Positions 9,001-12,000 of a stretch of DNA of 62,708 nucleotides are shown here, piece after piece (positions within the stretch are counted from its first letter, which is position 1; every line of letters starts with the position of its first letter). Source of the DNA: Escherichia phage PA16; sequence record KP682377.1, one strand, 5' to 3'. A program made the position numbers.

Positions 9001-12000
9001 GCTGGTTTGCGTTTGCATTGTAAGACCACTCGTGATGGGGTTGGCCTGTGTAGTTTGTCGGAGCTAATCGCCTCCTGACTTTGCAGGTTTGCGCGACGAG
9101 CTCTACGGCGAGAAGCTGCGGTGCCTTTAAATTCTGTTTTTCTGGACATAGATTCCTCCCGAATAAACTTTGGCGATGCAATCTCGAAGCTCCTCCTGAG
9201 ACGGTTGCTTCGGCATTGCATCCCACAGCTTATGTGGTTGGGTGATCTGGCTTTTCAGCCACGTAGTCGAGAGTCGACGTTGTTTAAAGAGCCTGCCAGT
9301 CTGTTCCATTTGGCTTCCAGCGTCCTGCTGATGGTTAAATAGTACGATATGTACTTCACTTGGTCAATACAATTTGGTCTAAAACGGGGCGTTTTTTTAC
9401 AACGCTTTGTATTTAATAGTATTGTTTTTTAGCGTGGGTGTATTGCCTCGGCGATGTAAGGAGAGATCAGAATTGCGTTGTTTAGTGAGTTGTATCTATT
9501 TATTTTCCAATAAATACAATTGGTTATGTGTTTTTTTGGGCGAGAGGAAAAGAAAACCCGGCATGGAGGCCGGGTTGATGATTAGCGGTGTGGCCTTGAG
9601 CGATAATGCTCACACACATGTTCAAGATTTCCATGCCTTATCCGTTCATAGGCATTCACATGAACTTCTCGATCGAATTGGTCATTCAAATTGTATGTAG
9701 ACATCTGTGTTTTCTCATATTGGCGGCAGCCCTACAACCGCTTGAAAAAATGTACCAGACGCGCTAAGGTTACATCGCAAATATTGTGTACCTTAACAAG
9801 GGCTCCTTTTGGAGGCTCTGGTTAAACAGCATCAATGTCGGACTGGGGAGTTGGACATTGTGCTGAATGCTTTTGCATTATTGAGGCCGAACGTAAACCT
9901 TCAGAATTGAAGAGATGCGTTCGGCTTCTTCGTTTGTGATATCGTTAGGAATGCCTTTAATCGTTACTGTAACCCCTGATTCAGGTCGAAGAACTACTGG
10001 AAGATCATAGGTATGAAGTGCATTAGCCTTGCCTTCGACTTTTGTTGGTTCGCCAGTCAAATCTTTTTCCTCACTGGATTCTTTGTCAATCGGAGTGTAT
10101 GGGATTTCTTCACCAGACTGGAAAGCTACAAACTTTTTGATTGCACTTTCCATGCGGCTTTTATATGCAGTAATGCTGCTGTCGCTAGGCTTCGGCTCAG
10201 TTGCGTTGATGTATCGCTCGGCAAGCTCATTCACATCAAGCTGAGTAACATCACCCATTTCCTCTTCTTGGACTACCGTTAAGAGGCGAGCGGATGAGTT
10301 TTTTAAATTTCGAGCGGTGGCCTCCTTCATTATGTTCAGCGACATAAGCTCTTCAAGGAAGTCCTTGAATGCCTGCACGCTAACGTTTGACTTTGCCATT
10401 TGCTCTCTCTCTAAGTTATTGACTCAGATCGAGTTTATCCAGGAATTGATTTGCATGCAAGACTCAAGTCTTGAGAATTTCCGTTCAAGATCCACTCTCA
10501 ATAAAAAAGGCCGCACCTCTGCGACCTTTCATCTCCTAAATCTCTTTTCTCTTACCTAAAGAAACAGCAGGCTGGGTCAGCCCTAACAACTTCAAGTGCA
10601 TCGGTCAGAGAAAGCTCCGTGCTATACAGGTGTTATTTCATATCTTTTTGCATCCAATAAATTTTCCATCTGTCCAGAGAGCGGATGCACTTGATTCTTG
10701 TTGATGGCAGGACGTTTTTTCACCTGCCTCACCCTGCCATACAGGACGCTGCTCACCGATATCTATCGTCCGGTCATTGATGTTATAGACAATATCCAGA
10801 TCATTACGGATATACTCAGATGGCCTTATGCTTTCAATGAATAGATGAACTTCTTTTTGACCGCTTGATACTCATGGCCATTAAACTCCATCTATCCTCT
10901 TTACCCAAACGTCTCTTCAGGCCATTGGCTGGCGATAACTTTCCCCACAACGGAACAACTCTCATTGCATGGGATCATTGGATATTGCGGGTTTAGTGGT
11001 TGTAGAAACACCTGACCGCTATCCCTGATCAGTTTCTTGAAGGTAAATTCATCACCACCAAGTCTGGCTATGCAGAAATCGCCGGGCTCAACAGCTTGCT
11101 CAGGGTCAACCAGAATTAACATCCCGTCAGGAAAACTAGGTTTGGAACCTGTTGGTGCGGTCATTGAGTTACCTTCAACCTCAAGCCAGAATGCAGAGTC
11201 ACTGGCTTTTTTGGTTGTGCTTACCAATCTCTCCGCATCACCTTTGGTAAAGGTTCTGAGTTCTGGAGAGAACATCCCAGCCTGAACATGAGAAAAAACA
11301 GGGTACTCATATTGTTTTTTAACTGGGGCCGATGAGTATTCGCCAACAGGTGAAAATGTCCCGTCGTGGTTGAATGATATGTTATCAATACCAAGGTATT
11401 TAAACACCACACCAATATCACTAAGAGATGGATGACGAGATCCGCGCAACCAGTGTCCAATTCCACCCTGCGTCATACCTAGCTCTTCGGCTAACTTCTC
11501 TTGAGTTATGCCGAGCTCTTTCATTCTGGATCTAGCCAGTTCATACCATTTCATTTTCATGTCCTTATTATTACGCTCTGTACTGGAACCATCCATGCAC
11601 AATGTGTATTTTTACTTGTATTTGAGAAGTACATATTGTATTTTTTTATTCGTGGTTACTATGGAGGGCATATGAGCAACCTACGAAAATATCGAGAGTC
11701 ACTGAATATCTCTCAAACAACACTTGCTAAGGCAGTTGGATGCACACAGGGAGCTATCGGACATTGGGAATCTGGTCGTCGCTTCCCAGACCTTAAAACA
11801 TGCCGTGCTCTTGTTGCGTGTCTAAACAAGTTAGGCGCAAAAGTAAGTCTTGATGACGTGTTCCCGCCGGAGCACAAAGCCGCTTAATAAGCGGAGCCGC
11901 TCTTTGTAACAACGGACATTCGTCCTACGTCGCTGAAAAGCGAGTCCCAAGATATCTGACCAACTAAGGCCATATGCGTTTCCACGCATACCTTTCAACT

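Follow-up and report, generated by a model that had tools for sequence, protein, structure and literature searches.

Several lambdoid phages carry cargo in the slot between the repressor operon and oL/pL, as exemplified by rexAB in lambda, stk in 933W and HK97, and bstA in the Salmonella phage BTP1. The concept of the moron was defined for HK97 and HK022 (Juhala et al. 2000; reviewed in PMC3594210). Here we describe a cassette that shares the slot and the orientation of such cargo in the 62,708-nucleotide sequence of Escherichia phage PA16 (KP682377.1; this whole stretch is henceforth referred to as the window). The feature, at positions 9547–10530, is real as DNA architecture, and the region is a mobile accessory unit of the moron type, set between the terminator of the cI operon and oL/pL. 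It holds two genes on the minus strand, the larger of which, ECs1184, is modelled as a core-binding domain of the tyrosine-recombinase type that lacks the catalytic half. The reading that we favour, and to which we give about an even chance, is that of an autoregulated DNA-binding accessory module built on this recombinase domain and travelling as a mobile two-gene cassette; the module is possibly addiction-like.

The window corresponds to prophage Sp5 of E. coli O157:H7 Sakai, which spans 1246154–1308861 of the Sakai chromosome and has exactly the same length (62,708 bp). Within it, the original prediction had described an acidic open reading frame (ORF) of 173 amino acids at 9878–10399 of the minus strand, and this is what we find. 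ECs_1184 is annotated at Sakai 1256031–1256552 and subtraction of 1246153 places it exactly at 9878–10399, so the 173-residue ORF is ECs1184, which also goes by the names ORF23 (Mondal et al. 2016), VT2-Sakai orf22 and WP_001130059.1. The 1.65 kb around the cassette are 99.9–100% identical to VT2-Sakai, Stx2 phage II, the PA-series phages and others, and all 49 phage records that encode the protein (49/49) annotate it as hypothetical. The gene is already on record without an assigned function; new here are its fold, the two-gene anatomy, the junction terminators and a candidate operator. On the minus strand the order is a weak predicted sigma-70 promoter, ECs1184, a stable hairpin, a 40-residue ORF and a terminator, with the following features in the window (dG, predicted folding free energy):

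9340–9414, no strand: oL/pL operators, part of the backbone to the left of the cassette, annotated in Stx2 phage II.
9547–9576, minus strand: left terminator (AACCCGGCC-UCCAU-GCCGGGUU UUCUUUU), dG -14.3 kcal/mol, z -4.75.
9582–9704, minus strand: small ORF of 40 amino acids (MSTYNLNDQFDREVHVNAYERIRHGNLEHVCEHYRSRPHR), the second cassette gene, between ECs1184 and the left terminator.
9827–9865, minus strand: stable hairpin without a real uridine tract (U-tract), starting 12 nt past the ECs1184 stop codon, dG about -20 kcal/mol, z -5.3.
9878–10399, minus strand: ECs1184 (ORF23, VT2-Sakai orf22), 173 amino acids, isoelectric point (pI) 4.85.
10432–10460, minus strand: predicted sigma-70-like promoter, -35 TTGCAT at 10455–10460, 17-nt spacer, -10 TAAACT at 10432–10437, start predicted near 10425 (about 1256578 in the Sakai sequence NC_002695.2).
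10458–10473, no strand: perfect 7+2+7 palindrome CAAGACT-CA-AGTCTTG (CAAGACTCAAGTCTTG), a putative operator whose AGTCTTG half-site overlaps the -35.
10503–10530, minus strand: terminator T1 (AAAGGUCGCAGAGGUGCGGCCUUUUUU), hairpin and U-tract, dG -15.9 kcal/mol, z -4.5.
10558–10893, minus strand: decayed DUF3024 gene, outside the cassette, between cI and T1.

The region had been taken for a one-gene cassette; the 40-residue ORF at 9582–9704 is conserved at the protein level, so there are two genes. This small ORF matches phrog_21154 (E 5e-8), its Sp5 and Salmonella versions differ by six synonymous and two non-synonymous codons, and it is 45–48% identical to ORFs of 44–45 residues in the Stx1 phage SH2026, Klebsiella and locus L028. 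Those ORFs follow large genes that are 40–42% identical to ECs1184, and the DNA between their two genes has no alignment to that of Sp5. Small proteins of this kind (henceforth type A) share the motif V.V..Y.RIR.G.LEHV..H[FY]RS.P and co-occur with the 40–42%-identical large genes in three genomic contexts. In Sp5, 173 nt with a hairpin between them separate ECs1184 from the small ORF. A GC-rich hairpin stands right after the stop codon of the large gene in every lineage examined, its sequences being unrelated from one lineage to the next, and it bears a U-tract in SH2026 and in phage YP3. For the 9827–9865 hairpin, which lies between both ORFs, a role in attenuation, RNA processing or 3' stabilisation is conceivable; an Rfam scan of 8000–12500 at E <= 1 returned no RNA family. 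Its loop CCAACTCCCCAGTC (window 9840–9855; around 5545–5560 in the Salmonella locus L013) is exactly reverse-complemented in the Salmonella cassettes with the stem unchanged, and Sp5 and L027 have the loop orientation in common; the reversal looks like a hairpin-loop inversion by template switching.

Insulation of the gene by intrinsic terminators on both sides had also been proposed. Both hairpins and both U-tracts are there (0 of 200 shuffles of T1 fold equally well), but neither terminator is private to the cassette. T1 is predicted to end the cI/DUF3024 transcript and to mark the right junction of the cargo slot. Its core GGTCGCAGARRTGCGGCC is identical across E. coli, Salmonella, Proteus and Serratia loci, and occurs also in the stk-carrying phage JLK-2012 and, in two copies, in the Salmonella prophage L016. 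In JLK-2012 (L026), the T1 hairpin lies at 2480–2497, before the RuvC-like/stk module of this 933W-like phage, while the two L016 copies (4257–4274 and 4876–4893) flank an 81-residue ORF on both sides. This recurrence between successive cargo modules suggests that conserved terminators serve as sites of recombination through which modules are swapped. On its left, the cassette ends in the terminator that lambda has after rexB, the region being homologous to the DNA just 3' of that gene; this terminator is present in the cassette-free prophages L004 and L005, and it stays with the cassette in a non-lambdoid Klebsiella prophage. Since both terminators are also found in prophages without ECs1184, they are shared module junctions of the slot.

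Neither hairpin follows its gene as directly as had been supposed. The small ORF intervenes between ECs1184 and the hairpin at 9547, and T1 is preceded not directly by cI but by a decayed DUF3024 gene of about 340 bp, which accounts for the 375-bp gap between cI and T1. A tblastn search with the intact 113-residue JLK-2012 protein aligned this remnant at 81–85% identity over three reading frames; it carries two frameshifts and an in-frame stop, and its DNA is 81% identical to the 933W-type gene. The annotation pipeline PGAP calls a 66-residue fragment of it. Intact copies of 113 residues follow cI in JLK-2012/933W-type phages, in SH2026 and in a Proteus prophage.

That the cassette is cargo is illustrated by prophage GN06489, which has an identical CI (WP_001302016.1), an identical Cro and near-identical N-nutL-oL DNA. 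From about 9585 to about 10900 it carries instead a DUF1828 gene and a hypothetical gene, with sharp homology breaks at both ends. A survey of 5426 complete E. coli genomes found the cI-cro region (counted at a coverage of at least 80%) in 776 and the cassette in 234, all copies being at least 99% identical. A prophage with the same CI and other cargo, together with these counts, shows that ECs1184 is accessory and not part of the CI switch. Homologues with 52–83% identity occupy the same slot, between an S24 repressor and N and on the cI strand, in Proteus, Providencia, Morganella, Serratia and Salmonella prophages and in a metagenomic lambdoid contig. They adjoin different CI alleles, sometimes with extra cargo (DUF3024 or a 345-residue protein) in between, and altogether at least five CI alleles are seen next to the cassette, in Proteus, Providencia, Serratia, Salmonella and the Stx1 phage SH2026. 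The more distant subfamily, 40–42% identical, appears in four settings: the same slot in SH2026; a prophage remnant near pepN, with large gene and small ORF together; the non-lambdoid Klebsiella prophage, where large gene, small ORF and the same left terminator lie together between accessory genes (Imm_superinfect, PerC) and an SSB-primase module; and the Yersinia phage YP3, directly after a 430-residue gene that follows the excisionase, and whose product has integrase-like motifs by eye.

This supports the placement of the cassette in the cargo slot of rexAB and stk, since in JLK-2012 stk lies between the same two terminators that bound the cassette in Sp5. The suggestion that sieB is another occupant did not hold, as sieB lies across N, on the other side. 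As with rexAB, stk and bstA, the cargo may be present or absent within one immunity type. The moron-type architecture that had been proposed largely stands as well. Like the morons of HK97 and HK022, the cassette is compact, has promoter-like and terminator elements of its own (the promoter-like element being conserved), lies between backbone genes, is absent from near-identical relatives such as GN06489 and has a lower GC content (44% vs 50% for the phage). It differs from them in having two ORFs and an internal hairpin, and in that its bounding terminators are the shared junctions of the slot.

Occupation of this slot makes it natural to ask whether the cassette is, as had been proposed, a superinfection-exclusion or anti-phage defence moron that blocks or aborts other phages, as RexAB, Stk and BstA do. 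The same-immunity prophages with alternative cargo, the predicted promoter and the terminator, the presence of the protein in the lysogen (see below), the retention of the cassette in a prophage remnant and the Imm_superinfect and PerC neighbours in Klebsiella are all in keeping with such a role. However, neither ORF had a hit in PADLOC-DB v2 at E <= 1 or a match in NCBIfam, and the Pfam search gave nothing significant; Pfam, PHROG and NCBIfam together yielded just phrog_2602 (for ECs1184) and phrog_21154, and hence no homology to Rex, Stk or SieB, stk and sieB being distinct genes carried by L026 and L005, respectively. Nor does ECs1184 have an effector domain of the enzymatic, membrane or nucleotide-binding kind; a DNA-binding fold is all that can be recognised. 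The cassette has no sequence or fold relation to Rex, Stk or BstA, and has an apparent promoter of its own in place of read-through from pRM. Genes like rexAB are normally deletable, which has been reported otherwise for ORF23, and distant homologues have housekeeping genes as neighbours. The cassette is not known to confer exclusion, unlike the rexAB, stk and bstA cargo. We consider the exclusion role unlikely.

Profile searches and structure prediction, both suggested as checks for the 173-residue protein, gave the first indication of what it may be. Pfam has no significant match to ECs1184; the hits to Phage_int_SAM_1 and Phage_int_SAM_6, in ECs1184 as in family members, are weak. The AlphaFold2 model (149-sequence alignment, mean predicted local distance difference test score, pLDDT, of 87.5) shows four helices (8–94), a disordered linker and a beta-hairpin followed by a helix (130–168) at a pLDDT of about 94. 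Residues 1–96 correspond to a four-helix domain of the core-binding (SAM-like) type of tyrosine recombinases, residues from about 97 to 128 to an acidic disordered linker, and residues 129–173 to a beta-beta-alpha domain. The core-binding domains to which it compares (lambda Int from about 75 to 176, XerD and IntI4; PDB 3nrw, 2oxo and 2a3v) are 7–13% identical to it, and searches of the PDB by sequence, with the single protein or a profile, gave no meaningful match. In the recombinases a catalytic domain follows, with the active-site residues and the tyrosine nucleophile among them; ECs1184 ends at residue 173, with just the 45-residue beta-beta-alpha domain after the linker, and no Phage_integrase match was found in it or in 37 family members with Pfam. 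As modelled, ECs1184 carries a core-binding domain like that of tyrosine recombinases on its own, the catalytic half being absent. The isolated C-terminal beta-beta-alpha domain has no match in Pfam; it probably mediates dimerisation or partner binding. MrpR/YopR of SPbeta and SroF of phi3T are recombinase-derived master repressors of Bacillus phages that keep an inactive catalytic-type domain. In Sp5, by contrast, repression is the task of CI, and phages of this immunity type can do without ECs1184.

The family is large. A profile search retrieved 653 cluster representatives (clusters at 50% identity), nearly all of them full-length proteins of 160–200 residues, without a Pfam entry. The PHROG families matched by the two cassette ORFs, phrog_2602 and phrog_21154, are both of unknown function. 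The folded domains are near neutral in charge, whereas the linker varies from about -6 in the prophage clade nearest Sp5 to about +4 in distant relatives, which are basic overall (pI about 9) and sited among housekeeping genes. One of these basic homologues, on the metagenomic contig L019 (6034–9284), lies between an intact guaA and a duplicated 3' guaA fragment, which looks as if a very small element had inserted at the guaA 3' end. An IPY motif at the end of the N-terminal domain was considered as a docking motif similar to the SSB tail and rejected; it is probably structural, because it aligns with an aromatic-x-Pro motif conserved throughout the family. Literature searches on orphan core-binding domains and by the RefSeq accession of ECs1184 found nothing.

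If ECs1184 binds DNA, its own promoter is the most obvious place to look. The TTGCAT-N17-TAAACT element lies where it had been noted, as does the palindrome over its -35. Neither would carry much weight in Sp5 alone: the palindrome occurs once in the window, with 2.1 chance matches expected at up to three mismatches, and is not rare. Promoter and palindrome gain weight only through their conservation across lineages. Equivalent elements with a 17-nt spacer are TTGCAA/TAGAAT in Proteus, TTGACT/AAAAAT in Serratia, TTGCAC/TAAAAT in L027 and TTGATT/TAGTAT in SH2026; in five diverged lineages a -35 inside (A)GTCTTG keeps a nearly constant distance to the ATG, and a strong terminator precedes the element. 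Relative to the ATG, the position of AGTCTTG is -65 in four lineages (Sp5, Salmonella, Proteus and L027) and -68 in a fifth (Serratia), and GGTCTTG covers the -35 in SH2026. Second or third copies of AGTCTTG vary in orientation: those of Sp5 and Salmonella are inverted, Serratia has a direct one, and L027 has flanking ones. Among 136 strand-collapsed tetramers, GTCT/AGAC comes first over the 120 nt that precede 12 family members (32 observed vs 7.4 expected), and in eight independent lineages it ranks second (22 vs 4.7 expected; p about 1e-6 after Bonferroni correction). First place there went to TCAA with a count of 31, a figure not attained in any of 2000 sets of random windows, in which GTCT itself came to 18 at most. 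GTCT-core repeats over the -35 and their enrichment upstream of distant relatives suggest autoregulation by ECs1184.

CI had been put forward as a possible ligand of the palindrome. This is unlikely, because the annotated 17-bp operators of oL and oR (consensus AAGTACA-N3-TGTACTT) differ from CAAGACT-N2-AGTCTTG and the cassette is paired with several unrelated CI alleles, and we rejected the palindrome as a CI operator. The inverted repeat I2 connects the oL/pL region with oR. Two further observations concern the leader. A GATC (Dam) site at the predicted start (10426–10429), within the 5' untranslated block CGATCTGAGTCAATAACTTA, is conserved in four lineages (Sp5, L007, L011 and L027). In the 40%-identity subfamily, a hairpin and a run of T, with the Shine-Dalgarno in the 3' arm, stand right before the ATG (L032 2470–2503, L034 3270–3306, also L028 and L033); this hairpin, absent from the Sp5-type leader, might act in leader attenuation or in the control of translation.

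The palindrome at this promoter is the sole pair of AGTCTT half-sites within 40 bp in the 62.7 kb, and no second half-site cluster or GTCT-dense window was found elsewhere in Sp5, so further phage targets were rejected. The same observation bears on the idea of a recombinase decoy or cofactor, in which the orphan domain would bind core-type sites or the protomers of Int or XerC/XerD, modulate integration or excision and so stabilise the prophage. The fold indeed matches the domain with which recombinases clamp core sites and touch adjacent protomers, the YP3 homologue comes directly after the gene with integrase-like motifs, next to xis, and loss of a chloramphenicol-marked prophage would also mimic a failure to obtain deletion mutants (see below). 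Yet the prophage ends are as devoid of putative half-site clusters as the rest of Sp5. In lambdoid prophages the gene is linked to the cI-N slot and not to int, which is seen at one locus alone, and it remains 72–83% identical across prophages of different genera with differing early genes. We regard this role as very improbable.

What is published on the gene itself is brief. In a systematic deletion study, ORF23 could not be deleted from a K-12(Sp5) lysogen; ECs1180 and ECs1184 were the only two Sp5 genes of this kind, and the authors suggested that stable lysogeny depends on the two (Mondal et al. 2016; PMC5155283). A literature search found only two papers that name ECs1184, with no further work published on the gene. 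The protein was detected in uninduced Sakai cultures (false discovery rate 0.065) in a 2025 RNA-interactome study, in which it was not a strong RNA binder (PMC7618764). As to its companion ECs1180 (8567–8818, minus strand), it is an 83-residue ORF between ea10 and N without a Pfam match. A hydrophobic ORF of 86 residues at 8807–9067, on the opposite strand to ECs1180, overlaps the ECs1180 region and N, roughly where the related E. coli prophage L005 carries sieB.

A failed deletion next to a small second gene brings to mind a toxin-antitoxin-like addiction pair, with ECs1184 as an autorepressing antitoxin and the 40-residue protein as its toxic partner, which would be set free on loss of ECs1184 alone. 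As in type II toxin-antitoxin operons, a first gene that we infer to be DNA-binding is followed by a small second gene, with a putative operator over the promoter; removal of the first gene by in-frame deletion was apparently lethal according to the published report. Attenuation by the hairpin would leave little of the second product, the two genes move together and are retained in a decayed prophage, and in one natural copy (H61) the first 156 query bases, which hold the small ORF, have no match while the large gene is intact. Unlike in those operons, the two genes are uncoupled by a long structured spacer, neither protein belongs to a toxin or antitoxin family known to Pfam, NCBIfam or PADLOC, and a hydrophilic, near-neutral peptide of 40 residues would be atypical as a toxin. 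The small protein is not known to be toxic, nor the loss of ECs1184 to be lethal. The partner is moreover interchangeable or missing in close relatives: a type B small ORF with paired cysteines takes the place of type A in Serratia and L027, and a basic type C in Proteus and L030, each conserved across two lineages. Pairing of an acidic linker with a basic small partner was ruled out, because the SH2026- and Klebsiella-type linkers are basic and yet have the same type A partner. A toxin-antitoxin pair in the strict sense is, in our view, quite unlikely.

An autoregulated accessory module would accommodate these observations as follows. ECs1184 would be made in the lysogen, as its detection in uninduced cultures indicates (PMC7618764). 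It would bind the GTCT-core half-sites (AGTCTTG) over its own -35 and repress its own promoter, and this repression would limit both the downstream small protein and leftward read-through towards nutL-N. Loss of ECs1184 alone would then be harmful, through an addiction-like or stabilising effect, and such harm would explain the failed deletion as well as the survival of the cassette in decayed prophages.

Several points weigh against this proposal. The promoter matches the consensus at 7 of 12 positions, below the threshold of the scanner, which did not flag it. In the O157 strain 644-PT8 an IS1203 at 10424–10429 (L038 1431–2737), between the -10 and the ATG and with its transposase facing away, separates promoter and gene without obvious harm; this IS1203/IS629 insertion looks like a natural promoter uncoupling, and a second copy of the cassette is possible in that strain. 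In Proteus and Serratia, two other families stand in for the type A small ORF, which phage YP3 lacks, and the small ORFs beside the distant chromosomal homologues are mutually unrelated, for which reason a conserved small partner was rejected there. ECs1184 is acidic overall (pI 4.85), the acidity being confined to the linker and the two folded domains being near neutral. As for the GTCT sites, 17 of the 22 come from three distant loci; the motif was noticed before it was tested, against a background of mostly coding DNA, and for these reasons we treat the enrichment as a lead and not as a result. Finally, the undeletable result lacked controls. ECs1180 and ECs1184 flank pL-nutL-N, so the cloned arms would carry an unrepressed pL and N, and the failure was possibly technical; we take such a technical cause, which is our own inference, as a serious alternative.

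One more set of neighbouring ORFs was observed near the cassette. An acidic ORF of 58–67 residues lies between the left terminator and pL, on the opposite strand, in Salmonella (L013 5861–6064, minus) and Serratia (L011 5871–6047, minus). The two share the motif IEMI..L....VDLAVE.A.D.LR and have no counterpart in Sp5. In L027, a 57-residue ORF (2672–2845, minus) occupies the equivalent place; the sequence comparison covered L013 and L011.

For phage biology, the analysis points to a large protein family that has gone unannotated, and to a cI-pL cargo slot that is rebuilt at two conserved terminators. It adds an integrase DNA-binding fold without the enzyme, a corrected anatomy, a candidate operator and a gene that lies outside the CI switch, all of them directly testable. 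A wider reading, which we hold to be doubtful, is that stand-alone core-binding proteins are an unrecognised, widespread family of sequence-specific DNA-binding regulators that read GTCT-core repeats, and that the prophage branch, with its partner of 40–57 residues, forms an addiction-like module that keeps Shiga-toxin prophages lysogenic. Sp5 serves as the reference Stx2a prophage for E. coli O157:H7, and prophage stability and induction set the amount of toxin. If the undeletable result is a cloning artefact, ECs1184 would be an ordinary accessory gene; if this addiction-like family reading is true, the failed deletion of ECs1184 would reflect real biology and the gene would control the stability of the Stx2 prophage.

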